From an uncultured Gemmatimonadota bacterium (GTDB lineage: Bacteria; 4572-55): a DNA stretch of 64,000 nt. The notes below the pieces were generated by a model. That model was not told the DNA's origin. It saw only the letters and a program-made list of their open reading frames with translations, and did no database searches. Of the stretch, positions 25,347-63,777 are shown in pieces (position 1 is the first letter of the stretch; each line of letters opens with the position of its first letter). The stretch covers positions 773-64,772 of the forward strand of contig CAYOLL010000011.1 in the NCBI GenBank assembly GCA_964404765.1, read 5' to 3'. The position numbers and the translations under genes were made by a program.

Positions 25347-26198
25347 ATGCGCTTTCTGGATGTGCGAACCGATTATGCTTTTAAAAAGGTCTTTGGCTCC
25401 GAAGAGTCAAAACCGATTTTGATCAGCTTTTTGAATGGGATAATTGACTTTGTTGATGGCAGCAAAATCACCGACCTGACCATCGTTGACCCGTATCAGA
25501 TTCCGCTGATCAAGGGCATGAAGGATTCTTATGTGGATGTAAAAGCCATCCTGTCATCAGGCGGGCGAGTCATTATCGAGATGCAAGTGCTTAATTTTGA
25601 AGGTCTCGAAAAGCGCATTTTGTATAACGCCGCCAAAGCCTATTCCACCCAGTTAATGAAAGCGGAAGATCATACCCTGGAGCCAATTATTGCCATTACC
25701 ATTACGGACTTTGTCATGTTTTCCGACATTCAGCCGGTGATCACCTATTTCAAGCTGCGCGAGAAAGAAAAGTTGCTGACCTATAGCGACGACATTGAGT
25801 TGATTTTTGCCGAACTGCCGAAATTTACCAAAACCGAAGCCGAATTGCAGACGATCACGGACAAATGGCTTTATTTTGTCAAAAATGCCGGCAGCCTGGA
25901 ATATGTGCCGGCGGCGATGGCTGAGCCGGAACTGCGGCAGGCTTTTGAGATTGCCAATACCGCCGGATTGAGCGAGGCGGAGTTGGGAGAACAATTTAGG
26001 CGGCGCGATTTCATTATGGTGCAAAAGGGCATTGAACGAACCCATCGAAAACAACTGGAAAAGGCGCAGCAGGAGGCACAACAGGCCAGGCAAGAAGCCA
26101 ATAAACTGACGGCGCTGAAGATGAAAGCTAAGGGGTTAGACATGGCTTTGATTGCCGAAGTAACCGGCCTGACCCGCGAAGTGATAGAAACATTATGA
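25347..26198 (+). CDS. Rpn-family PD-(D/E)XK recombination-promoting nuclease / putative transposase (YhgA-like)
   Basis: The hallmark N-terminus MRFLDVRTDYAFKKVFGSEE and overall length fit the TIGR01784 / Rpn family. Confidence 0.8.
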   Translation: MRFLDVRTDYAFKKVFGSEESKPILISFLNGIIDFVDGSKITDLTIVDPYQIPLIKGMKDSYVDVKAILSSGGRVIIEMQVLNFEGLEKRILYNAAKAYSTQLMKAEDHTLEPIIAITITDFVMFSDIQPVITYFKLREKEKLLTYSDDIELIFAELPKFTKTEAELQTITDKWLYFVKNAGSLEYVPAAMAEPELRQAFEIANTAGLSEAELGEQFRRRDFIMVQKGIERTHRKQLEKAQQEAQQARQEANKLTALKMKAKGLDMALIAEVTGLTREVIETL

Positions 26199-27640: not shown

Positions 27641-30283
27641 TCAAGCCTCATCCGCCCGCTTCTTCACTTCTTCCAGAATCAGCTTGATGCCGGGATTTTT
27701 GAGTGGATCGACGACCAATCTGGCCTTGGAGCCGTCGCGGCTGAGCTCGACCAATTGCAGCGGCAGGAGTACGCCTTCCAGCGCGCTTTTCAAGAAGGTG
27801 TGGTGCGGTGCGTCTAAGCCCTCAATCTTACCCGGCACAATGAATTTGGCGATGACTTCGTTGACTAAGGTGGCGGACTGTGCGGAGATGGCCGTTTCGA
27901 TGGTTTGATGTTTGGGGAACAGCTTTTTGAGTGGTTCGCGGATGATCAGGCCCAGCAAATCCTCAAAGTTTTTGTAAGCGGAGACGGCAAAATCAAACGG
28001 TGTACGGCCCTGTCCGGAGCCTGTCGCCGGGCCGGCGGCGGTCACAAACACGCCTTTTTGGTAGCAGGCTTTCAGCTCGTCCTGGGCCGGTTGTTTGAGG
28101 CGTTCCAGATTGTTTTCGGCCATACGGGCAATTTCGCGGCCTTCGTTGGTGGCGTCGTTGGCGTAGTCACGGGCCAGGCGGTGGGCGGCGTGCCATTCGC
28201 TCAACAACTCGGTTTGGGTAAAGGGCGCGGGCAGCCAGGCGATCACGCCGTGAATAAAGCGGTTTTCGAACTGCTGGAACAGTTCGGTCAAATGGGCTTG
28301 CTGTTCGTCCGTCTTCAGCGGCAGGCCGATCAACAGGAAAAAGTCATCTTCGGTGGCCCGCAGTTGCTGCAGGAAGTCGCGCACGGCTTTGTTGTCTACC
28401 TGCAGCAGGTCGGTCAGCCACACCTGGCCGCCGCGGGTGGTGTTCATCCAATGGGTGTGGTAGCGCACGGGTTTATCGACAAAGTTGGCCAGCGGCAATT
28501 GGCCGTAGTTGATGGTTTTGAGCAGAGCGGTCAGCATTTCCGGCGTTTTGGCCTGCTGACGGATGGCGCGGGCCTTGTCGGCATACAAATCGACGGCGGT
28601 GGCGGCCAGGTCGAACTCCAAAACAGCGTCCAACTCCGTCGCCCCGTGCCCTGAGCCTGTCGAAGAGCCGGGCGTCAGGCGCAAATAACTCAATTCGGTC
28701 GTCATTTTTTTGACCAGATGCTCGGCCAGATATTTATAATTGACGCCGCCGGCCAGATCGGTAAAGGCCTGATACAACAGCATGTTGGCCAATTGGCGAA
28801 TCGTCCGCTTGGACGGCAGGCTGGCCAGGCGCAGCAGCATCAAAATCTTGATCAGCCGCTGGGCGTAGACAACATCGCTGGGCTCGTCAGGAAACAGGCC
28901 GGAAATGCGCTTGGCAAAGTAATCGTGGTAATGATCGTAATATTTGCGCATGGCCGGTGATTCCTTGAGCCGCGTCTCAAAATGATCGAAGATACGGTCG
29001 GGCGTCAGCAGATGGGTGTAATCCTCGGCCAAAATGCCGGCGATGTTGCGGGTTGGATCGCCCTTGACCTGAAAATGGATGAAGTCCACTACGCCGCGTC
29101 GCTGGCTGAACAACTCGGCGCACACGTCCAGCAACTCGATGGTTTCGGGATGGACGGGGTAAATCTGGCGGAAGGCGTCCAGCGTCAGCGGAATGTCGTT
29201 GAAGCTGAATTTGAGCTGTTTGTAGGCTGCTTCGAGATGTGCCTGGCTACCCTCTTTTTTGAGAATCAGCCGGTAGTCGATTAGTTCTTTGATGTGGCGG
29301 GTGGACAGGCTCAGGCCGGAATGATAGCGATCCTTGATTTTGTCGATGACTTCTTTTTGGATGTCGCCGGTTTTTTCGATATGTTCCTGTAGGGCGGCCA
29401 CGACCCAGATGGGCCGGGTGGCGCTGCGTTCGCCCAAAAATTGCAGGAAGCGGGCGTCTTCGTTCAGGGCGGTTTTTTGACTTTTAGCCTTCAGAAACTC
29501 GGACAATTCGTCGATCAGCAGGACAAAGCCGTCGATTTTGTGCTGGGCCAGAATTTTCTCCAGCCGCTCAAAGCCTTCGCCGCGATCCAGCGCCAATTGG
29601 AACGGGACTTTTTGATCGAGGCCGGTCAAGTATTTTTTGGTCAGTTCGTAGGCGGCTTTTTGGTCTTTGTCCAGCAGGCGCTTCCAGGTGGTCAGGCCCG
29701 GATATTTGTCGCTGACGAGTTTGTCCAAATGGCGGGCGTGCAAGGGCAGGACGTGGACTTGAAATTGCTGCAGGAAGTAGGATTCCTCGGCTAAAGTGGC
29801 GTCGATTTTGTAGGGCGGTTTGGCCAGCCGGTTCTGGACGGCTTCGAAGACAATTTCCTCCAGCGGGCGGGCGGCTTTGTAGGCCAGCAGCGGAATTTCG
29901 ACAATCAGCAGTGTCTTTTTGCTGAGCGCAGTGAAGTGACTGCCCAGCTTGGGCTGCTGTTTAACCAGCGGTTCCCACATCTGCTTTTGGCGCTTGAGCG
30001 GCTGCAGCAACAGGCTGAGGATGCTGAGAAAGTGCGACTTGCCGGAGCCGAAGCTGCCTGATAAAAAAAAGCCTCGCCCTTGTGGACGGGCCAGGCTTTC
30101 CAGAATGATTTTCAGGTTGGTTTCAATATCTTCGGTCAGGACAAAAGAGGCGGTCAGGCCGTTGAGATATTGTTGTCCGGCCGGGTCGTCGGGCGCGGCG
30201 CTTTCGTTGACTTCGCGCAGTTTTTGCAGTTGAATGACCGTCTCCACCACGGGCAGACTGATCAGGTCTTGAATTTTTGGCAT
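27641..30283 (-). CDS. Large P-loop NTPase (880 aa), possibly defence-associated (BrxC/PglY-like is only a guess)
   Basis: Walker A FFLSGSFGSGKSHFLSIL; Walker B FVLLIDELSEFL; long helical C-terminal region. Contains two in-frame copies of Gly/Ser-rich inserts (STGSGHG, ATGSGQG) from the CCTGAGCCTGTCGAAG-type repeat. Family not recognisable from sequence alone. Confidence 0.6.
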   Translation of the reverse strand: MPKIQDLISLPVVETVIQLQKLREVNESAAPDDPAGQQYLNGLTASFVLTEDIETNLKIILESLARPQGRGFFLSGSFGSGKSHFLSILSLLLQPLKRQKQMWEPLVKQQPKLGSHFTALSKKTLLIVEIPLLAYKAARPLEEIVFEAVQNRLAKPPYKIDATLAEESYFLQQFQVHVLPLHARHLDKLVSDKYPGLTTWKRLLDKDQKAAYELTKKYLTGLDQKVPFQLALDRGEGFERLEKILAQHKIDGFVLLIDELSEFLKAKSQKTALNEDARFLQFLGERSATRPIWVVAALQEHIEKTGDIQKEVIDKIKDRYHSGLSLSTRHIKELIDYRLILKKEGSQAHLEAAYKQLKFSFNDIPLTLDAFRQIYPVHPETIELLDVCAELFSQRRGVVDFIHFQVKGDPTRNIAGILAEDYTHLLTPDRIFDHFETRLKESPAMRKYYDHYHDYFAKRISGLFPDEPSDVVYAQRLIKILMLLRLASLPSKRTIRQLANMLLYQAFTDLAGGVNYKYLAEHLVKKMTTELSYLRLTPGSSTGSGHGATELDAVLEFDLAATAVDLYADKARAIRQQAKTPEMLTALLKTINYGQLPLANFVDKPVRYHTHWMNTTRGGQVWLTDLLQVDNKAVRDFLQQLRATEDDFFLLIGLPLKTDEQQAHLTELFQQFENRFIHGVIAWLPAPFTQTELLSEWHAAHRLARDYANDATNEGREIARMAENNLERLKQPAQDELKACYQKGVFVTAAGPATGSGQGRTPFDFAVSAYKNFEDLLGLIIREPLKKLFPKHQTIETAISAQSATLVNEVIAKFIVPGKIEGLDAPHHTFLKSALEGVLLPLQLVELSRDGSKARLVVDPLKNPGIKLILEEVKKRADEA

Positions 30284-30980: not shown

Positions 30981-31589
30981 CTATTTTTTTGAGTCGAATG
31001 GAGTATCGGGGTCAGAGGCGTTAGGCAGCGCTTTAGAACTTGCGGCTAACGGCGTTTCATGGTCGGATAGCGGCGCCGCCGGCTGTTCCTCAAACCAGAT
31101 CAGCACAAACAGAATCGCCACGCCGACCGAGATCGCAATATCCGCCACGTTGAAAATGGGCCAGCGGGTCATATAATAGCCGTCAAAAGCCAACGGGCCG
31201 ATCTGAAAAGGAGCAATGACAATATCGGGAAACTCAAAGTCGAAAAAATCGACTACTTTGGCCATGTAGATTCGGTCGGCCAAATTGCCCAACGCGCCGC
31301 CCAGAATCATACCCAGGCTAAGCGTGCTCCACAGATGCTGCTGGCCGTGCGTTACGTAAAGATACAGCAGCAGGCCGATCACAAAGATCGACACCAGCGG
31401 GTACGGAAATTGATGACCCAGCGAGATGCCAAAGGCGGCATTGGGATTGTAGATAAAGGTCAGCCGGAAAAAGTCGCCCCATACTTCAATCGACTCGCCG
31501 ATTTCGAAGCGGGCTTTGATGATGAATTTGGTAAGTTGATCGAGCGCCAGCACAAATACAGCCGTGCCGACAAAGAGCGAATGTCGCAT
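30981..31589 (-). CDS. lspA: Lipoprotein signal peptidase (signal peptidase II)
   Basis: MRHSLFVGTAVFVLALDQLTKFIIK...FNVADIAISVGVAILFV; four TM segments and the conserved NxGAAF/FNVAD motifs. Confidence 0.85.
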   Translation of the reverse strand: MRHSLFVGTAVFVLALDQLTKFIIKARFEIGESIEVWGDFFRLTFIYNPNAAFGISLGHQFPYPLVSIFVIGLLLYLYVTHGQQHLWSTLSLGMILGGALGNLADRIYMAKVVDFFDFEFPDIVIAPFQIGPLAFDGYYMTRWPIFNVADIAISVGVAILFVLIWFEEQPAAPLSDHETPLAASSKALPNASDPDTPFDSKK

Positions 31590-31721
31590 TCAGATATTCC
31601 ATTTCAGGCGTGAATTCAAGTTATGAGTGAAATATTACGTCCCAGTTTTTCAGCACATAAGCGAGGAACGAAAAACAAAATACGGCAATCTCAAACCCTG
31701 TCAAGCAAAATTCCAGATTGC

Positions 31722-31812
31722 ATCAAAACCCAACCGTCACGCTCCCATACCCATTCCGCCCGGCCGCCGGGTAGTAATAGTTGCCGCCCGCCCAATCGTC
31801 GTAATAGCCTGT
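31722..31812 (-). pseudogene. Duplicated 3'-end fragment of the TonB-dependent receptor gene (encodes YYDDWAGGNYYYPAAGRNGYGSVTVGF*)
   Basis: About 92 % identical over ~95 bp to 32360-32455, the true 3' end of the receptor gene. Lies immediately after the xisI stop. Confidence 0.8.
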
Positions 31813-31814
31813 TG

Positions 31815-32150
31815 TCAATTATCCCCATAACCCGTGTACTTGTGTTTATAAGGCGCCTGAAATCCCAGCACAATATCTTCCTTGGGGACGCCCATGCTCA
31901 CTAACTCGTCGGCTATGCCCAGTTCGGTGCCATTATGCTGAATCCAAATCTTCCCGTTTTTGATGTCTAAGTGAAGGATGCAGCCGTGTGTCCAGTCATA
32001 ATGATCCCACCCGACCAACATCATCTGATAGTGATCCCGCTGCGTATCAAAAATATACTGAGTTTCCACGCCTGCTGGCGGTGGAAGTTGTTGGCCCAGG
32101 TCTTGTATGAACCGGGTGATATGAGCGCGGTATTGGTCTAATTTTTCCAT
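31815..32150 (-). CDS. xisI: XisI family protein
   Basis: MEKLDQYRAHITRFIQ...IFDTQRDHYQMMLVGWDHYDWTHGCILHLDIKNGKIWIQHNGTELGIADELVSMGVPKEDIVLGFQAPYKHKYTGYGDN is a strong match to the XisI family. Confidence 0.85.
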   Translation of the reverse strand: MEKLDQYRAHITRFIQDLGQQLPPPAGVETQYIFDTQRDHYQMMLVGWDHYDWTHGCILHLDIKNGKIWIQHNGTELGIADELVSMGVPKEDIVLGFQAPYKHKYTGYGDN

Positions 32151-32362
32151 TTTAGAATCTCCTCTGTTCCGGGATCGAAAACAATCAACGTGATTTGCGT
32201 TTCTTCGCAGACCGTTTGCACAAACTGCTTCTGGAAAAAAGCTTTGTGCACATCAATCGGAATGGCCAGGTACAACCGTCTGTCCGGCTCTTTTTCACGC
32301 AGGGCAATGTTGCTTCCGCCGATATGATAGGCAAGATTTGCCTTGTCGTCAACAGAAAAGCA
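32138..32362 (-). pseudogene. xisH: XisH family protein, N-terminally truncated (C-terminal ~74 aa only); overlaps the xisI start
   Basis: Translation CFSVDDKANLAYHIGGSNIALREKEPDRRLYLAIPIDVHKAFFQKQFVQTVCEETQITLIVFDPGTEEILKWKN* matches the XisH C-terminus. It begins in frame immediately after the TGA stop of the TonB-receptor gene (32363-32365). The N-terminal half, with the PD-(D/E)XK catalytic residues, is absent. Confidence 0.7.
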
Positions 32363-34945
32363 TCAAAACCCCACCGTCACGCTGCCATACCCATTCCGCC
32401 CCGCCGCCGGGTAGTAATAGTTGCTGCCCGCCCAATCATCGTAATAGCCCGATGTTTCGTATTCCTTATCAAGCGCGTTATTCAGCCAGACCCTAAACGT
32501 CAGATCGCGCAGGCGGTTGACTTTGAGCGAAGCGTTCAGGTTGAGCACACCGTAGGGGTCAACTGTGCGCGTTTCGTCTTCCGTATTGTCCAAATACTGC
32601 TGGCCGGCATATTGATATTGGGCGGACAGGCTGACATTGCCCACAGCGGCCAATGTCCAATTCGCGGTAGCTCGCAGGTTGGCCAGTGCAGACGGAAATA
32701 AAGCAATGGTCTGGCCGTCCAACCGCTGCGGCTGCCCGTCCCACGAATAGGCGGTGAAATCCACAAACTCGTTCTGGCTGAAGGCGATGTTGCCGGATAA
32801 TTCCAACCCTAAGGGTCTCGCCTTTTGACCCTTAGGGTTTTTCCGTTGATCATCGTCAAACCCTAAGGGTTGAGAAACAAAACCCTTAGGGTTGATTTTG
32901 ATTGCCGTGCTCAATTCGAGGCCCTGGTGCAGCGTTTTGTCGGCGTTGCCGCGCACGGCCCGGCCTTCTTCCACTACCTGGCCGTAAGGTACCAGCTCGT
33001 TGCGGAAGTCCATGCGATACAGGTTTAGCTTGGCGTTCCAGCTCCACAGATTGCTAATCTGTGCTACACTAAGGCCGAGCTCGTAATCGTAAACTGTTTC
33101 GTGTTGGGTCAACGGGTCGCTCCATTCCACATAGCGAATCGAACCATCGGCCTTGTAGACGTTTTTGGATTTGGCAAAGAGCGGGTCCACGCCAAAATCG
33201 TCCGCGCCCTGCCATTGATCGAACATGTCGGCGTCGGTCGGCTCGCGCTGGCCGACGGAGAAATTGCCAAAGGCGCTGAGGCCGCTGGAAATTTCATAAT
33301 TCACGCCGAGCTTGGGATTGAAAAAAGTGTAGTCCACCACGTAATAATTGAGTTCTGCGCCGGAGAAATTACCGGCCGATTTTTGCTCCATCGTGCGCTT
33401 TTTGTATTGCAGTTGCAGCTCGGCCATTAGACGCACGGACGGGGTCAGGGCGTAGTTTTCGTGGGCGTAGACGGTGGCCCACCACTTTTTGCCGTCGTAG
33501 TCGTAATAGCGCAGATTCGGTTGCGCATCCGGCGGCAGATTGGACGCCCACTTGACCTCGCCCCAGTGCGACGACCAAAAATCGCTCAACTCGCCGCCGA
33601 TGGCCAATTGTCCGCGTCCGGCGCTGTGCCGCACATCTAAGCGCGGCAGCCAGCCGATTTGATCCTTGTCCACCCACTTTTGCCGCACAATGTCGAATTC
33701 GCTGATCGTTTGACCCGTGCCGCCCGGGTAATAATCGTAACCGTGTGCGACCAAATCCGCCCCGGTCTTGAACGTCTCGTAATAACCTTCGCCATGCACG
33801 TAAAACAAAGTGTTGCTCAAGGTCAGACCGTCGCGCAGCCGCCACTCGTGTTGCAACTGATATTGGGGCTGATTGAAATTGTCCGTGGTGGGCACATTGG
33901 CATGGTAATGCGTGGGATTGGCGCGATGATTCAGCTTCAAGTCGGCCTCGGCCACGGCGTCCCAGGCCGCGTCCAGATGAAACGGGCCGCTAAAGATGTT
34001 GACGCGCGTGGTCATGTTGGCGTCGAAGCGGGCCGCGCCGATAAAGTAAGCCCAGGCGTCCAGACCGGAACGCTCGCGATAGCCGTCAGTCAGCACTTTG
34101 GAATAGCGGCCATACACGGCGTAGGTGTTGTTGATCAGCCCGGAGCGGAACTGGGCCGTGTATTTGCGTGTGCCGTAACTGCCAAAACCGGTGGTCAGGC
34201 TCACGCCTTGCGCGCCGGTCAGATTGTCCGTGACAACGTTGACCGAGCCGCCAAAACCGCTCAGGCCGACCATGCCACCCACGCCACGCTGCACCTGAAT
34301 ATCCTGCACACTCTCGGCCACATCGGGCAAATCCACCCAATAGACTTGGTGATCTTCCGGGTCGTTGAGCGGCACGTTGTTGATCATGACATTGACGCGC
34401 TGCTGGCCAAAACCGCGAATCTTCAGATACGAATAGCCGATGCCGTTGCCCGATTCAGAATAGCTGAGCAGATTCGGCGTTTCCTGTAGCAGCATGGGGA
34501 TGTCCTGCCCCTGATTGGCCGCGGCAATACGCTCGTGATGCAGATTGGCAAAGGCCATAGGTGTGCGGCCGTCGGCCCGTGTGCCGGTGATGATCACTTC
34601 CTGGCCGGGCAGAATGGTCGGGGTTAATTGGAGCGTCAAAACGGCGCTTTGACTTACGGACACGCGCTGCTTGCCGACGCCGTAACCGAGATGACTGGCG
34701 CTGATCGTATATTGGCCGTCGAGGATATCAGCGATCTCGAATTGACCGGCGGCGTTGCTGACGGCTCCGCGGTTGAGCCCTTCCACCAGCACATTGACGC
34801 CGGGAATGATCGCACCGGAAACAGCGTCCGAAACCGTGCCGGAAACGGTAGCGCAATGGACAATGGACAATGGGCAATGGGCAATAAAAAGAAAAACGGC
34901 GAAAGTGCAGGTAAAAAATCGTAGATTAAAGATTGAAGATTGCAT
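32363..34945 (-). CDS. TonB-dependent receptor with N-terminal carboxypeptidase-regulatory-like domain
   Basis: CarboxypepD_reg-like TVSGTVSDAVSGAIIPGVNVLVEG...GQFEI; plug DIPMLLQETPNLLSYSESG...LKIRGF; barrel ending ...GSVTVGF. Start taken at the second Met (the ORF-track start is 34981). Confidence 0.85.
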   Translation of the reverse strand: MQSSIFNLRFFTCTFAVFLFIAHCPLSIVHCATVSGTVSDAVSGAIIPGVNVLVEGLNRGAVSNAAGQFEIADILDGQYTISASHLGYGVGKQRVSVSQSAVLTLQLTPTILPGQEVIITGTRADGRTPMAFANLHHERIAAANQGQDIPMLLQETPNLLSYSESGNGIGYSYLKIRGFGQQRVNVMINNVPLNDPEDHQVYWVDLPDVAESVQDIQVQRGVGGMVGLSGFGGSVNVVTDNLTGAQGVSLTTGFGSYGTRKYTAQFRSGLINNTYAVYGRYSKVLTDGYRERSGLDAWAYFIGAARFDANMTTRVNIFSGPFHLDAAWDAVAEADLKLNHRANPTHYHANVPTTDNFNQPQYQLQHEWRLRDGLTLSNTLFYVHGEGYYETFKTGADLVAHGYDYYPGGTGQTISEFDIVRQKWVDKDQIGWLPRLDVRHSAGRGQLAIGGELSDFWSSHWGEVKWASNLPPDAQPNLRYYDYDGKKWWATVYAHENYALTPSVRLMAELQLQYKKRTMEQKSAGNFSGAELNYYVVDYTFFNPKLGVNYEISSGLSAFGNFSVGQREPTDADMFDQWQGADDFGVDPLFAKSKNVYKADGSIRYVEWSDPLTQHETVYDYELGLSVAQISNLWSWNAKLNLYRMDFRNELVPYGQVVEEGRAVRGNADKTLHQGLELSTAIKINPKGFVSQPLGFDDDQRKNPKGQKARPLGLELSGNIAFSQNEFVDFTAYSWDGQPQRLDGQTIALFPSALANLRATANWTLAAVGNVSLSAQYQYAGQQYLDNTEDETRTVDPYGVLNLNASLKVNRLRDLTFRVWLNNALDKEYETSGYYDDWAGSNYYYPAAGRNGYGSVTVGF
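32800..32905. repeat. Four copies of palindrome CCCT(A/T)AGGGT(T) inserted in frame inside the TonB-receptor gene (encode ...NPKGFVSQPLGFDDDQRKNPKGQKARPLGLE...)
   Basis: The same palindrome family forms the MITE-like elements at 23085-24250 and 40185-40275. Confidence 0.75.
34854..34885. repeat. Heptamer tandem repeat (CAATGGA x2, CAATGGG x2) inside the 5' coding region (signal-peptide region) of the TonB receptor gene
   Basis: Read directly; on the coding strand it encodes IAHCPLSIVHC. Confidence 0.85.
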
Positions 34946-35250
34946 TGTTGCCTCCTTATAGAAATTGACGGAGGCAAACAAGCTGAAAGCGGATGGCTGG
35001 AAGCTGAGAGCTTGAATCCTGTTCCCTCCGCCGGTATGATCCGGATCAGGTTCGACGGGTGCGTTCTCAGCCCGCTTATGGCGGGCGCCCCGACAGGAAA
35101 TTTATGTGAATAACTGTTAGAATCAACCACACTTGCTAAGGTTAAAGTCGGTAAGAAATCAACAGTTTCAAGATCTTTGCAATCCTGAAGTGTAACCTTC
35201 GCAAGGGTACGCAACCTTTGGTCTATCCTTCATGTCGTCATATTTTCAAA

Positions 35251-38517: not shown

Positions 38518-38594
38518 GGGGTCGTAGTTCAGCTGGTTAGAACGCTGGCCTGTCAAGCCAGAGGTCGCGAGTTCAAGTCTCGTCGACCCCGCCA
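38518..38594 (+). tRNA. tRNA-Asp (GTC)
   Basis: Cloverleaf: acceptor GGGGTCG/CGACCCC, anticodon loop CTGTCAA, T-arm GCGAG TTCAAGT CTCGT, CCA encoded. Confidence 0.9.
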
Positions 38595-38604
38595 TTGAAT
38601 GAAA

Positions 38605-38637
38605 ATTGCAGAGGTCCAAAGCCTCTGCAATTTTTTA
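38605..38637 (+). terminator. Rho-independent terminator (stem ATTGCAGAGG / CCTCTGCAAT + T6)
   Basis: Follows tRNA-Asp. Confidence 0.75.
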
Positions 38638-38653
38638 CTATAAGGGGACTGAT

Positions 38654-38729
<76 letters not shown>

Positions 38730-38762
38730 TCCTCTTCTAACGGTAGGATTATTAAGTGGAAT

Positions 38763-38838
38763 GCTGGCGTAGCTCAGCTGGTAGAGCAGCTGATTCGTAA
38801 TCAGCAGGTCAACGGTTCAATTCCGCTCGCCAGCTCCA
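38763..38838 (+). tRNA. tRNA-Thr (CGT)
   Basis: Acceptor GCTGGCG/CGCCAGC, anticodon loop TTCGTAA, CCA encoded; one A-C mismatch in the T stem. Confidence 0.8.
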
Positions 38839-39065
38839 CTTGTCCTGCCGTTTTTTTATCAAAAATGTAACTATTCAGTAACCGAGGCCCCGCTGGGTCT
38901 TTTCCCATTCGTGTCTATTTGTGTTCATTAAGTGGCTGAATAGTTATTCAAAAATTCAAATTGTGTCATTTCGTAATTTGAGCTGGTCGGCTTTTCAACT
39001 AAAACGTTTTCAACTTCATAATCTTACATTTGTAATTACGAAGATACTACAAACAGGAGGTCTTC

Positions 39066-40163
39066 ATGGCAAACGTCATTTTGCCCGGTACATATATTAC
39101 CGTCCGGGATGAAGGTCTGATTAGCGCCGGCGCTGTTAGTGTCGGTAATGTTGGTGTGGTTGGTACTGCAGACAACGGCGATGTTAGCAAGCCTTATATT
39201 TTAAGCGGTTTTATGGCTGCCAGAGAAATATTCTCGCCGGTTCAGGAACAGGGCAAGGCGTCCAAGCCGGTAACCGGTAATTTACTTAGTACCTTAGAGC
39301 TTATTTTTGGTAATGGCGCTACCACTGTCTACGCCGTACGTGCCAAGGATGAAACAGCTGACGCCTATGCCGATGCGCTGGCCGCATTGGAGAAAGAAGT
39401 TGTTAACATCGTGCTGCTGGCCGGACAAGATGCCGGTAAAAGCGACATGGTGCTTAAACTTAAGAATCATTTGGATTTTACCGAAGGGATTCAGCGCGAA
39501 CGAGTCGGTGTTGTCGGCAGCAACGGCACAACGGACGCCAAGAAAATCAGCAATGGTATTGATCTCGTTACAAACGACAAAGGCCGCCTGATTTATGTCG
39601 CGCCCGGTCTAAAATTGAAGCGCCGCAATCCAGCCACCGGCGAAGAAACCGAGGATGTTCTTTCTGGGGCTTACACGGCAGCGGCTGTAGCCGGATTGAT
39701 TGCCTCTTTACCGGTTCAGACCAGCCCCACCAACAAGACCATCAATATCAGTGGATTGGGCGCCGAATTCAACCATGGCCAATTGGAAAGTCTTGTGACA
39801 AGCCGTGTACTAACGGTCGAAAAGCGGGAAGGTTTTCGGGTCGTTAAAGGCATCACCACTTCCACCAACACGGCCTGGGCCCAGGTGACAACACGGCGTA
39901 TTGTCGACAAAGCCATCTACGGCGTTCGATCCTCATGCAATCCCTACATTGGCAAGCTGAATAATGATCGTGTTCGTGGCGCAATGAAAGCCACAATAGA
40001 CGGCTTTTTGACCCGAATGGTTGAAGAAGAGGCACTTAAAACGTACAAGCTGGAAGTCAGCGCTACACGCGCCCAGGAAATTGCCGGGCAGTGTATGGTC
40101 AATATGACTTTGCAGCCCACGTTTAGCATTGATTACATCATGGTGACCATGTACTTAGGCTAA
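39066..40163 (+). CDS. Contractile tail sheath protein (phage / CIS-type)
   Basis: N-terminal VILPGTYITVRDEGLISAGAVSVGNVGVVGTADNG...FG fits the sheath N-terminal consensus (PGVY..E......GvsT...vG). The C-terminal ...NDRVRGAMKATIDGFLTRMVEE...CMVNMTLQPTFSIDYIMVTMYLG fits the sheath C-terminal domain. Confidence 0.7.
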   Translation: MANVILPGTYITVRDEGLISAGAVSVGNVGVVGTADNGDVSKPYILSGFMAAREIFSPVQEQGKASKPVTGNLLSTLELIFGNGATTVYAVRAKDETADAYADALAALEKEVVNIVLLAGQDAGKSDMVLKLKNHLDFTEGIQRERVGVVGSNGTTDAKKISNGIDLVTNDKGRLIYVAPGLKLKRRNPATGEETEDVLSGAYTAAAVAGLIASLPVQTSPTNKTINISGLGAEFNHGQLESLVTSRVLTVEKREGFRVVKGITTSTNTAWAQVTTRRIVDKAIYGVRSSCNPYIGKLNNDRVRGAMKATIDGFLTRMVEEEALKTYKLEVSATRAQEIAGQCMVNMTLQPTFSIDYIMVTMYLG

Positions 40164-58510: not shown

Positions 58511-58965
58511 CCGGTTTTGGAAAACAAAAAACCACGAATTCACAGGGAATCCGTGGCTATGGCGGTTGCCGAATATAAAAAAGCCACGGACGTTAAGATA
58601 TTGTGCGTTCGTGGCTTAGAAGAATTTTTACTAAATTGAACTTAGTGTCGCATCTTCACCACGGTGCACAAAACGGCCCGATAATCACTGTAAACTAAAA
58701 ACATTACAGTGCGCGGGAACCTTTGCACAAAAGTTGTGGTGAATTTTAACATGCAATAAACTCCTAAAGAGAGTTATTAATTATATTCGTTTTTATCTAT
58801 AAAAAGTCCGGTTGGACTATAACCTAAAATTATCAGCGGGTTAAAGATATTTTTTCTTAAAACGATGTCAAGCGGATTTTTTAAATTTTTAGCCAATGAC
58901 GAAAAAATTTAAAATGGATCCCAGCCCCGCATGAGCCGGGACCGGGATGCAAAAGTCTGTCAACG

Positions 58966-59075
58966 CAACAGCGCCATCTTCTTCGTCTCCGTGCCGGACG
59001 GCGTTTGCAGGCGATAGACATTGACGCCGCCGCGCACGGCTTGACCGTCGTCCGCGCCGCCGTCCCATATTCCAC
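58966..59075 (-). pseudogene. Fragment of a T9SS C-terminal sorting domain coding end (…WDGGADDGQAVRGGVNVYRLQTPSGTETKKMALLR*)
   Basis: About 90 % identical to the 3' ends of the LVIVD genes at 60055-60180 and 61618-61750. Confidence 0.7.
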
Positions 59076-59080
59076 AACAA

Positions 59081-59431
59081 TCAACGTGTTTCAGCAAAAT
59101 CTTGTTTCGAAGAGCCAATTCGCTTCCGCTGTTTGGTTCGCTTTTCCAGGCCGGGTAGCTGAGCCATTAATCCCATCAACGAACGCAATGCCCGGTTGAC
59201 GGATTGTGAATCCGGGAAACAGGTCAACACATCGGGATCAAGCCGCACGGTGCCCGCTTCATAACGCACTTGTTGAACTTCCGTGGTCCCGTCCGCTTTG
59301 TGGATTTCAATGGTATAACCTTCGTGCAGCGGGCGATAGTGCCGGCCACGCACGGCTCCCCGTAAATCGTATTCCGAGCGAAGTTCGTCCACTTCGTTTT
59401 TGATAGGCGGGTTAGATGCTTTCTTCTTCAT
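59081..59431 (-). CDS. brnA: BrnA-like antitoxin
   Basis: 116 aa; ...LRSEYDLRGAVRGRHYRP... motif. Overlaps the brnT stop, the canonical BrnT-BrnA order. Confidence 0.65.
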   Translation of the reverse strand: MKKKASNPPIKNEVDELRSEYDLRGAVRGRHYRPLHEGYTIEIHKADGTTEVQQVRYEAGTVRLDPDVLTCFPDSQSVNRALRSLMGLMAQLPGLEKRTKQRKRIGSSKQDFAETR

Positions 59432-59696
59432 ACATTTTCCTCTCTTGCCGTGTTGCTCGGCGGCAGCTAATGATCCGAATACATCCTCTGCGTTCAGTGT
59501 AATTTATCAGTAGCAGTCGTCCCAGGGACGAATAGCCAACCCCAATGAAACGATCCTCATCCTCCGAATGGTCCGGATCGTGAATTGTCGCAATATGCGT
59601 ATCGTTAAAGATGGTCGCGCCTTCTTGAAAGCTTACGTCATGTTTTTTGAGATTGGTCTTTGCTTTTTCCTCATCCCATACAAATACAGAACTCAT
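59412..59696 (-). CDS. brnT: BrnT (DUF497) ribonuclease toxin
   Basis: MSSVFVWDEEKAKTNLKKHDVSFQEGATIFND...DPDHSEDEDRFIGVGYSSLGRLLLINYTERRGCIRIISCRRATRQERKMYEE is a strong match to the BrnT family; start chosen at the internal Met. Confidence 0.8.
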   Translation of the reverse strand: MSSVFVWDEEKAKTNLKKHDVSFQEGATIFNDTHIATIHDPDHSEDEDRFIGVGYSSLGRLLLINYTERRGCIRIISCRRATRQERKMYEEESI

Positions 59697-59762
59697 AAAA
59701 ACTTCCGATAACCCTTTCTCTGGTAAATGGTTTTCTCTCACGTTACTTCAGCAAAACCGGCA

Positions 59763-59830
59763 CGTTTTGAGGATCAGCATAACAGCGCCATCTTCCCGGT
59801 TTCCAGGCCATCCGGCGTTTGCAGGCGATA
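59763..59830 (-). pseudogene. Second degenerate T9SS-CTD 3'-end fragment (MQIYRLQTPDGLETGKMALLC*)
   Basis: Homologous to 58966-59075 and to the LVIVD gene ends. Confidence 0.6.
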
Positions 59831-60049
59831 AATTTGCATGTTTGATCCTTTTCAGAGTGTTACGAATGGGCACTTGAATAGGAGTAAAATAGGACTGCGC
59901 CAATTTATTGTCAATACCAAACGGCAGGCAGGATAAAAAGAAAAAGCCGCTCTCCATTTCAAGAGAGCGGCTTTGTCCCATGTCCCCGGCACTTTTTGTA
60001 CAACTATGGATACGGCACACTTCCGGTAAGTGCCGGGGACATTTCAGAA

Positions 60050-61360
60050 TCAGCGCAGCAAAACCATCTTCTTCGTCTCCGTGCCGGCCGGGGTTTGCAG
60101 GCGATAGAGATAGACGCCGCTGCTCACGGCTTGACCGTCGTCCGTGCGGCCGTCCCAGGTGAGTTCATGCGACCCGGCGGCTAAGCGCTCCCGGGCCAGG
60201 GTCTTGACCAGCCGACCGGCGGCGTTATAGATGCGCAGGTGGATTGCGCCGGCCCGGGCGAGTTGGAAGCGGATGGAGGTTTGCTCGGTAAAAGGATTGG
60301 GATAATTGCCGGTGGTGAGCGCTGCGGTTGGCTGCGGTTGCGGGTCGTCTTCGATGGCGGTGAGGTCGGTATAATACAGGATGACCAACCCGCCATACCA
60401 ATTGGCCACGTAGGCATAGTTACCGCTGACCGCCACGCCAACAGCATCGATCGGCGTGTCGTAAGAGCCTATTTCGACGGGCGCAACCGGGTTACTGACG
60501 TTGATCACCCGCAGCCCGGAACCATAATCGGCCACGCAGGCATAGCCGCCACTGACCGCCACGTCAACAGCAACGCCCGGCGTGTCGTAATAGCCAACCT
60601 CGCTGGGCGCAGCCGGGTTGCTGACGTTGATCACCCGCAGCCCGCCATGACCATCGGCCACGTAGGCATAGCCGCCACTGACCGCCACGCCATAAGCACC
60701 GCCCGGCGTGTCGTAAGAGCCCGCCTCGCTTGGCGCGGCCGGGTTGTTGACGTTGATCACCCGCAGTCCGGAATCATAATCGGCTACGTAGGCGTAACCG
60801 CCGCTGACCACCACGGCTAAAGCGCCCGGCGTGTCGTAATAGCCAACCTCGCTGGGCGCAGCCGGGTTGCTGACGTTGATCACCCGCAGTCCGCCATAAC
60901 CATCGGCCACGTAGGCATAGCCGCCGCTGACCGCCACGTCCCCAGCATAGCCCGGAGTGTCGTAATAACCAACTTCGCTGGGCACGGCCGGGTTGCTGAC
61001 GTTGATTACCCGCAGCCCGGCATAATAATCGGCCACGTAGGCATAGCTGCCGCTGACCGCCACGCTATAAGCAGCGCCCGGTGTGTCGTAAGAACCAACT
61101 TGGCTGGGCGCGCCCGGGTTGCTGACGTTGATTACCCTTAGCCCGACAGAACCCGCGGCCACGTAGGCGTAGTCGCCGCTGACCGCCACGTCATGAGCAT
61201 AGCCCGGGGTGTTGTAAATACTCACCGCGCTGGGTGCGCCCTGCACCGCGCCTTCGGGAGCATCTACAAACGCCAAATTTTGGCTCCAGCCTGCTATCGG
61301 ACATAAGGCCAACGCCGTAAAAATCATAAACATCGCCGCATACAGCAGTTTCGTAAACAT
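60050..61360 (-). CDS. LVIVD-repeat protein with T9SS C-terminal sorting domain
   Basis: RBS GAGGGGGA before ATG 61360; signal peptide [26 protein letters not shown]. About 8 LVIVD repeats ([32 protein letters not shown]). C-terminal [37 protein letters not shown]...[20 protein letters not shown]. Confidence 0.8.
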
Positions 61361-61614
61361 ATTGTCCCCCTCGTTTGATAGGTGAACTTCAAAAAATCCG
61401 GAAAAATCATACTCGAAAATTAAACAATTACCAGGTCTTTGCAAGAAAAATCGGCCTATCCGCTGACGGATCACTTGGAACACCGGCAGTTTCTAAAACC
61501 CGGCGGCTCGCCGACCGGATAAAAAGAAAAGCCGCTCTCCATTCTCCGAGAGCGGCTTTTAGATAAACAACGGCGTTAGATGGACGCCACCTTTGAGGTG
61601 GTGTCCATCTAAAA

Positions 61615-63777
61615 TCAACGCAACAAAACCATCTTCTTCGTCTCCGCGCCGGACGGCGTTTGCAGGCGGTAGACATAGACACCGCTGCCCACGGCTTGAC
61701 CGTCGTCCGTGCGGCCGTCCCAGGTGAGTTCATGCGACCCGGAGGCCAGGCGTTCATTGGCCAAGGTCTTGATTAGCCGACCGGCGGCGTCATAGATGCG
61801 CAGGTGGATTGCGCCGGCCCGGGCGAGTTGGAAGCGGATGGCGGTTTGCTCGGTAAAGGGATTGGGATAATTGCCGGCGGTGAGCGCGGCGGTTGGTTGC
61901 GGCTGCGGGTCTTCGATGGCGGTCGAGCCGCTGTATTGCAATGTAAACAGCCCCCCACTGCCATTAGCCATATAAACGTAATTGCCAGACAAAGCAATAC
62001 CTTCTACTCTATTTGAAGTCTCGTAAAATCCAACCTCTTTTGGATGCGTTGGATCACTAATATTAACAACCCGCAGACTAACGCCATCCTTGGCTACATA
62101 CGCATGAATTCCGGAAATAACGATCTGACCTGCATAATTGCCCGATATAAAACCAGTTTCTGCGGGAGTGGAAGGCGTTGCAATATTGAGAATTCGTAAG
62201 GCGGATGTACCTGCGACATAAGCATAGTTGCCGGCAATTGCGACTCCCCTGGCATCATCGGGGGTAACGTAATGCTTAACTTCCGTGAGAGATTGCACAT
62301 TACTGATGTCAATGATTCGCAAATCACCGTCGGCTATATAGGCGTAATTTCCGGATATGGCAACATCAGATGCATTTTTGGGAGGGTCGTAATATCCGGC
62401 TTGACGAGGCGACGCTGGATTGCTAACATCAATAACACGTAAGCCCTTACTGGAACCGCCAACAACATAGGCGTAGGCCCCAGAAATGGTCACAGCATCA
62501 CCACGGTCGCCTAAATTAATCTCGGCTACGCCTTGTGGATTCATCGGATCACCTATGTTGATAATGTTCAAATTGCCATTGCGGTTACTCACGTTGTTAT
62601 TAATCAAATACGCATAATTGCCGGATACGGCAATGTCCATGGCGTAAAATGACACCGGACTTGCAAGCTGCCCTATTGGATTCGGATATACGGGATTGCT
62701 GATATTGAGGATACGCAACCCTCCATTCTGATCAGCTACGTAGGCGTAGTTGTTTACAACGGCCAAATTCTGTGCATAGCCTGGTGTGTTGAAATAGCTA
62801 TACTCGGAAGGATTGACAGGATCGCTCACATTTACAATTGATAAACCCCGCAGACCGGCCGCTATGTAGGCATAGTTGCCTGATACGGTTAGATCCAGAG
62901 GTTCAGTCTGTGTATCATAAAAATTGAAAAAACGTGGTGTCGTAGGATTACTGACATCAATGATGTACAACGCTCCAGATTGACCAGCAACATAAGAAAC
63001 ATAGGCAAGGTTGCCTGAGACAACAACATCTAATGGGCCACCTAAGCCGGATGTCAGATCAAAAAATCCAACTTCTGTAGGACTAGCCGGATTGTTAATG
63101 TTGAGTATTCTCAAGCCGCTTTTATGTTCGGTGATGTACGCGTAATTGCCAGAGATGAATAATCCAATAATGGGCACGGATGCTGTAAACTTACCAATCT
63201 CGATCGGGTTTGTGGGATCATTAACATTTAATATCCTCAAGTCGGGACCGGCAGCAAAATACGCATAATTTCCAGAAACAGCGACAGAGACCGGAACACC
63301 AAAATTAACATTATTACTAAATTGACCGACTTCATTGGGCTTTTCGGGATTGCTGATATTAATGATCCGCAACTTACCGCCTTTTTCGGTTACGTAAGCA
63401 TAATTTCCAGAGACAGCAAGATCATCTGTGAAACTCAAATCAATATGGCCAATTTCTGTAGGGTGGACAGGTGCATTCCCAATAACGTGCAACCCGCGTT
63501 CTCCAATGACGTAAGCATAATTACCGCTGACAGCTATTCCCTTGACGTCCACGATGGAATAGCCCAATGTTACAGCCGCGGCTGGATTACTCGCATCTAG
63601 GACACGTAAAGAGCCTCCCGTGCCTACATAGGCAATATTGCCCTGCACAACAACAGCGTTTGTGGCGCCATGGGGCCAATGCCCAATTAAATTCACATTC
63701 TGGCTCTGCTGGCCAAAAACCGCGCTGCTCCAACTCGCCAACAGCGCAAACCATAAAGCGATCCGAAACTTCATCAT
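61615..63777 (-). CDS. LVIVD-repeat protein with T9SS C-terminal sorting domain (paralog)
   Basis: RBS GGAGGAGG before ATG 63777; signal peptide MMKFRIALWFALLASWSSAVFG; many LVIVD-type repeats; the same C-terminal sorting domain. Confidence 0.8.
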   Translation of the reverse strand: MMKFRIALWFALLASWSSAVFGQQSQNVNLIGHWPHGATNAVVVQGNIAYVGTGGSLRVLDASNPAAAVTLGYSIVDVKGIAVSGNYAYVIGERGLHVIGNAPVHPTEIGHIDLSFTDDLAVSGNYAYVTEKGGKLRIINISNPEKPNEVGQFSNNVNFGVPVSVAVSGNYAYFAAGPDLRILNVNDPTNPIEIGKFTASVPIIGLFISGNYAYITEHKSGLRILNINNPASPTEVGFFDLTSGLGGPLDVVVSGNLAYVSYVAGQSGALYIIDVSNPTTPRFFNFYDTQTEPLDLTVSGNYAYIAAGLRGLSIVNVSDPVNPSEYSYFNTPGYAQNLAVVNNYAYVADQNGGLRILNISNPVYPNPIGQLASPVSFYAMDIAVSGNYAYLINNNVSNRNGNLNIINIGDPMNPQGVAEINLGDRGDAVTISGAYAYVVGGSSKGLRVIDVSNPASPRQAGYYDPPKNASDVAISGNYAYIADGDLRIIDISNVQSLTEVKHYVTPDDARGVAIAGNYAYVAGTSALRILNIATPSTPAETGFISGNYAGQIVISGIHAYVAKDGVSLRVVNISDPTHPKEVGFYETSNRVEGIALSGNYVYMANGSGGLFTLQYSGSTAIEDPQPQPTAALTAGNYPNPFTEQTAIRFQLARAGAIHLRIYDAAGRLIKTLANERLASGSHELTWDGRTDDGQAVGSGVYVYRLQTPSGAETKKMVLLR

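Follow-up and report, generated by a model that had tools for sequence, protein, structure and literature searches.

The 64,000-nt stretch of DNA analysed here (the window hereafter; contig CAYOLL010000011.1 of an uncultured Gemmatimonadota bacterium) contains a gene for a TonB-dependent receptor whose 3′-end region occurs twice, and a small cassette lies between the two copies: an intact xisI gene and the 3′ part of a xisH gene (referred to as xisH′ hereafter). We judge it slightly better than an even bet, at a probability of about 0.55, that this insert is a degenerate, horizontally mobile xisHI module of a toxin–antitoxin-like kind, lying in a long-target-duplication configuration 3′ of the receptor gene. 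The layout is one that has already been named, as insertion with long target duplication, and it has its precedent in restriction–modification (R-M) units. The reading is built on the anatomy of the locus, its reproducibility in an independent assembly, the recurrence of its layout with other cassettes and host genes, and the absence of mobility genes.

Structure of the repeat and the insert

The features of the locus are as follows (ORF, open reading frame; TPP, thiamine pyrophosphate).

35006..35102, minus strand: TPP riboswitch (Rfam RF00059; 78.1 bits, gathering score 54.3) immediately upstream of the receptor gene
32363..34981, minus strand: TonB-dependent receptor gene (longest ORF, 872 codons, TTG start at 34981)
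32360..32455, minus strand: repeat copy A1, attached (the receptor's last 30 codons, the TGA stop, then TGC)
32309..32359, minus strand: 51-nt segment of unassigned origin between the receptor stop and recognisable xisH
32138..32308, minus strand: xisH′, the 3′ part (residues ~84–140 of a 140-aa protein), without ATG and without the N-terminal half
31815..32150, minus strand: xisI, intact, 111 aa, with a GAGGAG Shine-Dalgarno-like motif upstream
31720..31815, minus strand: repeat copy A2, orphan (31 codons), which runs on into the native lspA upstream region
30981..31589, minus strand: lspA (signal peptidase II, PF01252), the native downstream neighbour

A direct-repeat search of the window followed by alignment gave one direct repeat of 96 nt at a spacing of 640, with 89 of the 96 positions identical (93%). 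The preliminary description of this DNA had reported that the receptor's last 30 codons are present twice and are about 92% identical; this part stood, in view of the 89/96 aligned positions, and only the length of about 91–95 nt had to be corrected to 96 nt. Read on the minus strand, both copies give ...GYYDDWAG(S/G)NYYYPAAGRNGYGSVTVGF*, followed by TGC. The 37-nt core of the repeat (at most 3 mismatches) is found in the window only as A1 and A2, and 0 occurrences are expected from 100 shuffles. Both junctions of the insert are abrupt, the shared sequence being at most 2–3 nt: A2 begins at the xisI stop codon or no more than 5 nt from it, and no tRNA or other known RNA was found at the junctions. 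The GC contents of the insert (47.6%), the receptor gene (56%) and the window on average (49.9%) do not discriminate. A Logan contig assembled independently (L001; run SRR8670877) matches the window at 100% identity over 1810 nt that extend from the receptor end through both copies and the cassette to lspA; the repeat structure is thus not peculiar to one assembly.

The insert between the copies amounts to 544 nt and is composed of the 51-nt segment, the C-terminal 57 codons of xisH and the full-length xisI. Its content had been described as an intact xisI and a xisH devoid of the N-terminal, catalytic half, and the profile matches agree with this: XisI covers positions 1–109 of the 110 of PF08869 (140.5 bits; cut-off 25), and xisH′ covers only positions 83–133 of the 134-position profile PF08814 (51.6 bits; cut-off 25; E 1.4e-13) and positions 83–138 of a custom XisH hidden Markov model. 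XisI further matches the Protein Data Bank (PDB) entry 2NLV, "XisI protein-like" (E 5e-31), and none of the 19 columns that are invariant in a 22-sequence alignment is altered in it; 3D7Q was also among the solved structures of the two families that were matched. For XisH, we aligned xisH′ to the 140-aa proteins of loci L086, L092 and L094. For a full-length relative, matches to two solved XisH structures, 2OKF and 2INB, were obtained, and the alignment including 2OKF shows that residues ~84–140 are left here. Since XisH is classed as a PD-(D/E)XK nuclease, the catalytic residues can be placed in the N-terminal half, and the missing part would accordingly hold the D...E-x-K nuclease core (IDLAAE...VEIK in relatives). 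The start of xisI overlaps the stop of xisH′ by 13 nt, and the same 13-nt overlap is found in L086, L092 and L094.

The 51-nt segment deserves separate mention. A 74-codon frame (32138..32362) is open and in phase from the receptor TGA, as had been stated for the remaining xisH. However, xisH is recognisable only from 32308, and because the first 17–18 codons of this frame (32359–32309) are not recognisably xisH, the in-phase start carries no weight. In local alignments, the segment had no similarity above shuffled controls to the xisH DNA of relatives or to the native downstream sequence of the receptor gene. MAFFT suggested that xisH is broken just after the E-x-K motif with a GC microhomology; this suggestion was dropped, as the 51 nt align no better than shuffles. 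The segment carries a sigma-70-like motif, TTGACG-17-TATCAT (32352→32324; 10/12 matches), and another promoter-like sequence, TTGACA-16-TATTTT (31704→31677), is located upstream of lspA.

The receptor gene itself is uninterrupted. The product called by NCBI (P0001) has 860 aa and would start at 34945; it contains the Pfam domains CarbopepD_reg_2, Plug and TonB_dep_Rec_b-barrel and thus has a plug, a beta-barrel and a C-terminal strand with an aromatic last residue, as a TonB-dependent receptor should. Its identity to the nearest homologue (P0002) is 63% over the full length through the C-terminal F, and the C-terminal ...VTVGF is kept as in its homologues, in accordance with the earlier view that a recombination event left its footprint here with the 3′ end of the receptor gene complete. 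The TPP riboswitch in the upstream region indicates that the receptor is probably a thiamine-related outer-membrane transporter; its reading frame should therefore be under selection, and the C-terminal strand should matter. The xisH′–xisI cassette may be co-transcribed with the receptor gene under TPP control.

Recurrence of the layout

Scanning metagenomes with the XisI alignment yielded 80 loci. Of 89 xisI cassettes, 15 have direct repeats (at least 30 nt) on their flanks within 1.5 kb; tight ones (within 300 nt) were seen at 7 of 85 cassettes versus 38 of 2404 sliding control positions, and direct-repeat pairs of at least 80 nt occur at ~126 per Mb in xisI loci versus 8.5 per Mb in receptor-type loci (~15-fold). 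These figures point to an enrichment of flanking repeats around xisHI. Two unrelated loci have the layout described above. One is L175, where the duplicated segment (at least 139 nt at 92.8% identity, up to the contig end) comprises an M20 peptidase gene's 3′ end and terminator hairpin. Here, xisI is intact and preceded by only ~13–15 codons from the 3′ end of xisH, the orphan starts 7 nt past the xisI stop, and the two copies are 100% identical across the non-coding terminator. Another is L135, in which a full xisHI pair lies between two copies (at least 261 nt, 90.4% identical) of the 3′ portion of an AP_endonuc_2-family gene, and the downstream copy, that is, the orphan, carries a nonsense codon. 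The locus in the window, L175 and L135 are alike in that an intact host gene is located upstream, the cassette is co-oriented with it, the orphan is located downstream, and no 5′ remnants exist.

The same layout is found once more in the window, around a cassette of another kind.

58960..60157, minus strand: BrnT locus, in which copies of a 3′ end encoding a type IX secretion system (T9SS) sorting domain lie around a BrnT cassette
60050..61483, minus strand: LVIVD/T9SS-sorting-domain gene (Pfam LVIVD and Por_Secre_tail), with the attached copy at 60050–60157
59766–59830, minus strand: degenerate partial third copy of the repeat
59412..59741, minus strand: BrnT toxin gene (BrnT_toxin, PF04365, E 6e-26)
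59081..59431, minus strand: ORF overlapping brnT on its downstream side
58960–59067, minus strand: orphan copy, 108 nt, starting 13 nt past the stop of ORF 59081..59431

The orphan at the BrnT locus is 88% identical to the attached copy and 89.8% identical to the corresponding part of a paralogue (61615–61722). The adjacent LVIVD/T9SS genes share 314 nt of their 3′ ends (60048–60361 and 61613–61923) at 91% and have internal repeats with a 126-nt period; they look like a tandem pair of paralogues, the ends of which have been homogenised. The earlier proposal that cassettes of such a kind move has gained support from the recurrence at L175, L135 and the BrnT locus.

Several other repeat-flanked xisHI loci have structures of their own. 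L100, L108, L114, L141 and L171 were considered as target duplications and were rejected, their flanks being dispersed small-ORF or promoter repeats. In L108 (1136–1281, 2456–2589 and 3370–3500; also in L100 and L114), cyanobacterial xisHI is flanked by a dispersed ~135-nt repeat that includes a promoter (TTGACA), a ribosome-binding site and a small-ORF start (MTQKNLKPQQAAPVQREINTT...), and this is not a target duplication. In the close relatives L094 (1–2550; Caldilinea sp. CFX5, QWII01000179) and L086, repeated intergenic units of 100–380 nt (88–99% identical) lie between xisHI and adjacent PIN/PemK modules, forming a cassette array without recognisable attC sites. A 45-nt repeat of L086 (3661–3705, 4447–4491 and 9951–9995) starts at the stop codon of an upstream glycosyltransferase gene and recurs at cassette borders. 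In L147 (2447–2583, 3601–3738 and 4538–4630), whole and fragmentary copies of a short TIR-domain gene (83–95% identical) alternate with xisHI and another small cassette, perhaps as a result of several insertions of cassettes into a TIR gene, accompanied by duplication.

Divergence of the repeat copies

The 7 differences between A1 and A2 comprise 5 synonymous and 2 non-synonymous ones (pS 0.24, pN 0.03), and the copies of L135 give a pS of 0.22 and a pN of 0.05 plus the nonsense codon. If the end had been duplicated in place and the orphan had then drifted, ~36% of the differences would be expected to be synonymous. Binomial estimates against in-place duplication followed by neutral orphan decay are p ~0.06 for this locus and p ~0.04 for L135. 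These patterns weakly suggest that the copies diverged as parts of working genes and were joined later. Two histories fit such a synonymous-biased divergence: the arrival of a gene end from a related donor, and the remnant of a tandem paralogue.

Searches for an empty site and for a recombinase

The best homologues of the receptor are 63% (Logan) and 57% (MAG, metagenome-assembled genome, "Cloacimonetes 4572_55") identical, and other genes follow them downstream (Yip1, YjbQ); no synteny with this locus was seen around P0002 and P0004. The nearest homologues come from MAGs labelled KSB1, Calditrichota and "Cloacimonetes". Apart from the source contig, the protein search found no receptor homologue above 63% identity, and xisHI or lspA was found near a receptor homologue in 0 of 80 genome loci. 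When LspA and the receptor were looked up by exact sequence, L001 was the sole result or there was none, and no alternative contig emerged. The direction of the event, whether insertion or another, is one that we infer.

In agreement with the preliminary description, neither the insert nor its immediate surroundings yielded an integrase. Domains of integrases, resolvases and classical transposases were likewise absent from the insert, from its neighbours and from the larger ORFs of the window that were scanned. An integron gene cassette was rejected as an explanation for the locus, its repeats being receptor coding sequence and no integrase being found among the ORFs scanned in the window. The relatives L094 and L086 do have cassette arrays, but the repeats there fold no better than shuffles and lack R″/R′ boxes. 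L086 and L087 were also compared as a possible presence/absence polymorphism of a PIN cassette; this was rejected, as L087 has the sequence of L086, part of it given as N.

The xisHI genes in other genomes

In Anabaena, according to the literature, xisH and xisI encode accessory factors of XisF, a large serine recombinase, and many xisHI pairs without xisF are known from other bacteria; in the literature searched, no report of xisHI mobility or toxin–antitoxin behaviour was found. The closest XisI proteins (68–78% identity) are from Caldilinea (Chloroflexota), Desulfobacterales, Moduliflexus and unbinned contigs, and more distant ones are from cyanobacteria. XisI was found on 48 cyanobacterial plasmids and in none of 50,697 phage records. 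The closest xisI genes lie in toxin–antitoxin and defence islands, beside PIN, HigB, PemK, HepT/MNT, Gp49, DUF4160/DUF2442 and an MmeI-type enzyme. Their scatter over such lineages, these neighbours and the occurrence on plasmids speak for xisHI as a mobile module.

The state of xisH was examined at 88 XisI loci that are not at a contig edge, xisH being sought within 900 nt. It was intact at 57 of the 88 loci, split, internally deleted or 5′-truncated at 20, and not detected at 11. This asymmetry is only suggestive of xisH being lost more readily than xisI, because XisI was the criterion by which the loci were chosen and the split class is inflated by frameshifts in metagenome data. Individual cases illustrate the broken states: in L096 (249–672), xisH has a frameshift after EIKSF beside xisI, and a 98-nt direct repeat flanks the pair (1–98 and 1262–1358); in L103, L130 and L165, xisH is 5′-truncated to profile positions 53–64 beside an intact or near-intact xisI; and in L164 and L176–L178 (690–990), xisH lacks residues ~20 to 46/53, with xisI intact or near-intact.

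Proposed history and its alternatives

The duplication may have been made by the insertion, brought in with the insert, or left from a deleted paralogue. In the history that we favour, the cassette would have entered by recombination and not through a dedicated transposase or integrase, having come with a diverged receptor 3′ end from a related donor through recombination within the 96 nt, which could be of the Campbell type or facilitated by homology; alternatively, it may have entered where chromosome ends that had broken at staggered positions were joined. A donor-derived gene end is preferred because no similar paralogue is detectable, 5′ remnants do not exist, the orientation is constant, and the terminator of L175 is identical in both copies. 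The upstream copy (A1) would then keep the receptor complete, with the downstream copy (A2) as a non-functional orphan, and since the receptor is left complete, the insertion would cost the host nothing. The catalytic half of xisH would have been lost during or after the entry event, and transcription of the intact xisI could result from read-through of the receptor gene or start at the promoter-like site in the 51-nt segment. Toxin–antitoxin addiction modules decay toxin first, and the loss of the nuclease half of xisH together with the retention of xisI would fit such a decay, as well as the repeated N-terminal losses of xisH at other loci. The order of events, the recombination route, the toxin–antitoxin-like nature of xisHI and its expression are thus presumptive parts of this history.

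Several points weigh against the insert being a mobile module of this kind. No empty site or close relative was found in the genome, protein and exact-sequence searches, in which the best receptor homologue was 63% identical and had no synteny. Only two further host-3′-end cases were found among ~82 testable XisI loci, all of which had been selected on XisI, and most repeat-flanked xisHI cassettes sit between array or dispersed repeats (e.g. L094, L100 and L108). The enrichment of tight flanking direct repeats around xisHI is only indicative in strength because the control windows overlap. The synonymous bias is based on 7 and 25 differences and could be distorted by gene conversion; furthermore, the copies of L175 have no such bias (pN/pS ~1.3). 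The degenerate third copy and the tandem paralogues make the remnant of a paralogue a plausible history at the BrnT locus. With regard to function, XisH and XisI had no matches in PADLOC and NCBIfam, the former null result in particular counting here, and a toxin–antitoxin system is defined by a toxic product and a neutralising partner, both of which roles, like the cutting of DNA by XisH, are putative for XisH and XisI.

An unlikely but serious alternative is that xisHI, together with deletions, replaced a second, similar receptor gene except for its last 96 nt, so that A2 is what remains of a tandem paralogue. Differences that are mostly synonymous are just those expected of two functional genes, and the BrnT cassette does adjoin true tandem LVIVD paralogues, with the orphan slightly closer to the other paralogue (89.8% vs 88%) and with a third copy present. 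Against this stands the finding that no second receptor with a similar C-terminus was detected among the listed homologues, where only P0002 (63%, from another sample) has a near-identical tail. This history also needs a 2.6-kb duplication, an insertion, and deletions ending 3 nt past one stop codon and at another stop codon. Moreover, no 5′ remnant exists here, in L175 or in L135, the orphan being always a 3′ end, downstream and co-oriented, and the repeat of L175 extends through the non-coding terminator at 100%.

More doubtful, and wider in scope, is the view that xisHI and small toxin–antitoxin cassettes in general are recombinase-free mobile units that carry a surrogate 3′ end of their last host gene. 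Recombination between the repeats would release a circle composed of the cassette and the gene end; the circle would re-integrate by homologous recombination in the same gene of a related cell, in which the resident end would be orphaned and the frame restored, and the XisH nuclease may supply the initiating break. Such a cycle would lead to an orphan that is always downstream and co-oriented, to copies with a synonymous bias, and to a right end 0–13 nt from the last stop codon, the distance range found at three loci.

A decayed integrase-bearing element, similar to cis-mobilizable elements (CIMEs), is quite improbable. In this case, an attP with a replacement 3′ end would have made attL and attR, that is, the 96-bp repeats, and all but xisH′–xisI would have been deleted. 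It is general knowledge that direct repeats of ~100 bp and ~93% identity at a gene 3′ end are typical of att sites; the diverged copies fit a surrogate end borne by the element, and xisHI of Anabaena assist a large serine recombinase, as cited above. However, the recombinase searches were negative for the insert, its neighbours and the larger ORFs scanned in the window, and serine recombinases, as is also generally known, leave no long repeats. In addition, the unrelated host genes (a peptidase, an AP_endonuc_2-family protein and a T9SS-domain protein) argue against one site-specific system, and the inserts are only 0.4–1.4 kb in all cases.

It is less probable still that a local replication or repair accident is responsible, in which xisHI was already located downstream of the receptor gene and slippage or template switching copied the 96 nt and deleted the 5′ half of xisH. 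The abrupt junctions with at most 2–3 nt shared would suit it, and the 51-nt segment could be filler DNA, but the recurrence of the layout with different cassettes and hosts would be left unexplained, and the neutral decay of an orphan predicts more non-synonymous change than is seen (a weak test). Finally, although the contig is derived from a metagenome and ~100-nt repeats can cause misjoins, an assembly artefact that joined strain variants of the MAG can practically be dismissed, as both copies and the cassette are contained at 100% identity in the independent Logan contig, and the copies, which differ at 7 positions, cannot be one sequence whose reads were collapsed or duplicated.

Other features of the window

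Within the receptor ORF (32804–32894), four copies of the 13-nt palindrome AACCCT(A/T)AGGGTT make two 37-nt inverted arms. Read in frame, these arms correspond to a 26-aa insertion, KGFVSQPLGFDDDQRKNPKGQKARPL, which is absent from the nearest homologue P0002; it looks like a small palindromic element tolerated within a loop of the receptor. A gene for a BrxC/PglY-like (DUF6079) ATPase of 880 aa is located at 27641–30283, and no other genes of BREX (bacteriophage exclusion) were seen among the ORFs scanned. A gene of the PDDEXK_2 "transposase" family lies at 25347–26198, 5.5 kb away from the insert. A tRNA-Asp/Phe/Thr cluster followed by a phage-tail-sheath gene is found at 38518–40163, and the latter gene could be part of a contractile injection system or of a prophage remnant.

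Implications and comparison with known systems

Beyond the fdxN element of Anabaena, xisH and xisI are widespread and have no known role. The locus and its parallels suggest that xisHI are selfish, toxin–antitoxin-like cassettes that are gained and lost by recombination, with the nuclease partner decaying first. If a route of this kind is common to R-M units, xisHI and classical toxin–antitoxin cassettes, it would be a general, transposase-independent way in which small addiction modules spread. Two practical points may be added: a synonymous-biased divergence of the copies could separate on-the-spot duplication from a gene end carried in, and orphan 3′ gene fragments beside small cassettes are useful markers of recent insertions in MAGs.

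With the fdxN system of Anabaena (XisF, XisH and XisI), the locus shares the Pfam families of XisI and of the XisH fragment. It differs in that no XisF-like serine recombinase was found among the ORFs scanned, the receptor gene is unsplit, no large gene-interrupting element is present, and the host is not a cyanobacterium. The likeness to type II toxin–antitoxin systems lies in two small, co-oriented, overlapping genes, a patchy distribution, neighbours such as PIN, HigB, PemK and HepT/MNT, and a putative toxin gene that is often broken beside an intact partner; the BrnT cassette of the window, moreover, shows the same duplication. CIMEs and att-bounded islets resemble the locus in that their repeats derive from a protein-coding 3′ end and the host gene is kept intact by the upstream copy. 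Unlike them, it has no integrase that could be found nearby, the host genes differ among the parallel cases, and the inserts are as small as 0.4–0.5 kb.

Insertion with long target duplication of R-M units was reportedly described by Nobusato and colleagues in 2000. Furuta, Abe and Kobayashi (2010; PMC2853133) used the term for R-M units that are bounded by direct repeats of 46–423 bp (93–100% identical) and have no mobility genes; some of these repeats overlap the 3′ end of a host gene. In that work, double-strand breaks were suspected to be part of the mechanism, and a cycle from insertion through amplification via the repeats to release was proposed (PMC2853133). The present locus is similar in its small nuclease-type unit without a transposase or integrase and in repeats that exceed the target duplications of transposons. 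Its repeat is longer than 30 bp (96 nt, 93%) and overlaps a host gene 3′ end, and its insert is smaller than 20 kb (544 nt) and has no transposase, integrase or phage genes. Within the 64-kb window, the repeat occurs only as its two copies. The cargo, however, is xisH′–xisI with a truncated nuclease gene in place of the R and M genes, and the definition of the R-M class is based on a genome whose site is empty, whereas here one occupied locus is known. The mainly synonymous differences between the copies hint that one of them arrived together with the insert, an idea that is not part of the published model. Because its cargo is not an R-M pair, the locus is not a member of the class as originally defined; it works like the long-target-duplication class and is a new type of cargo for it.

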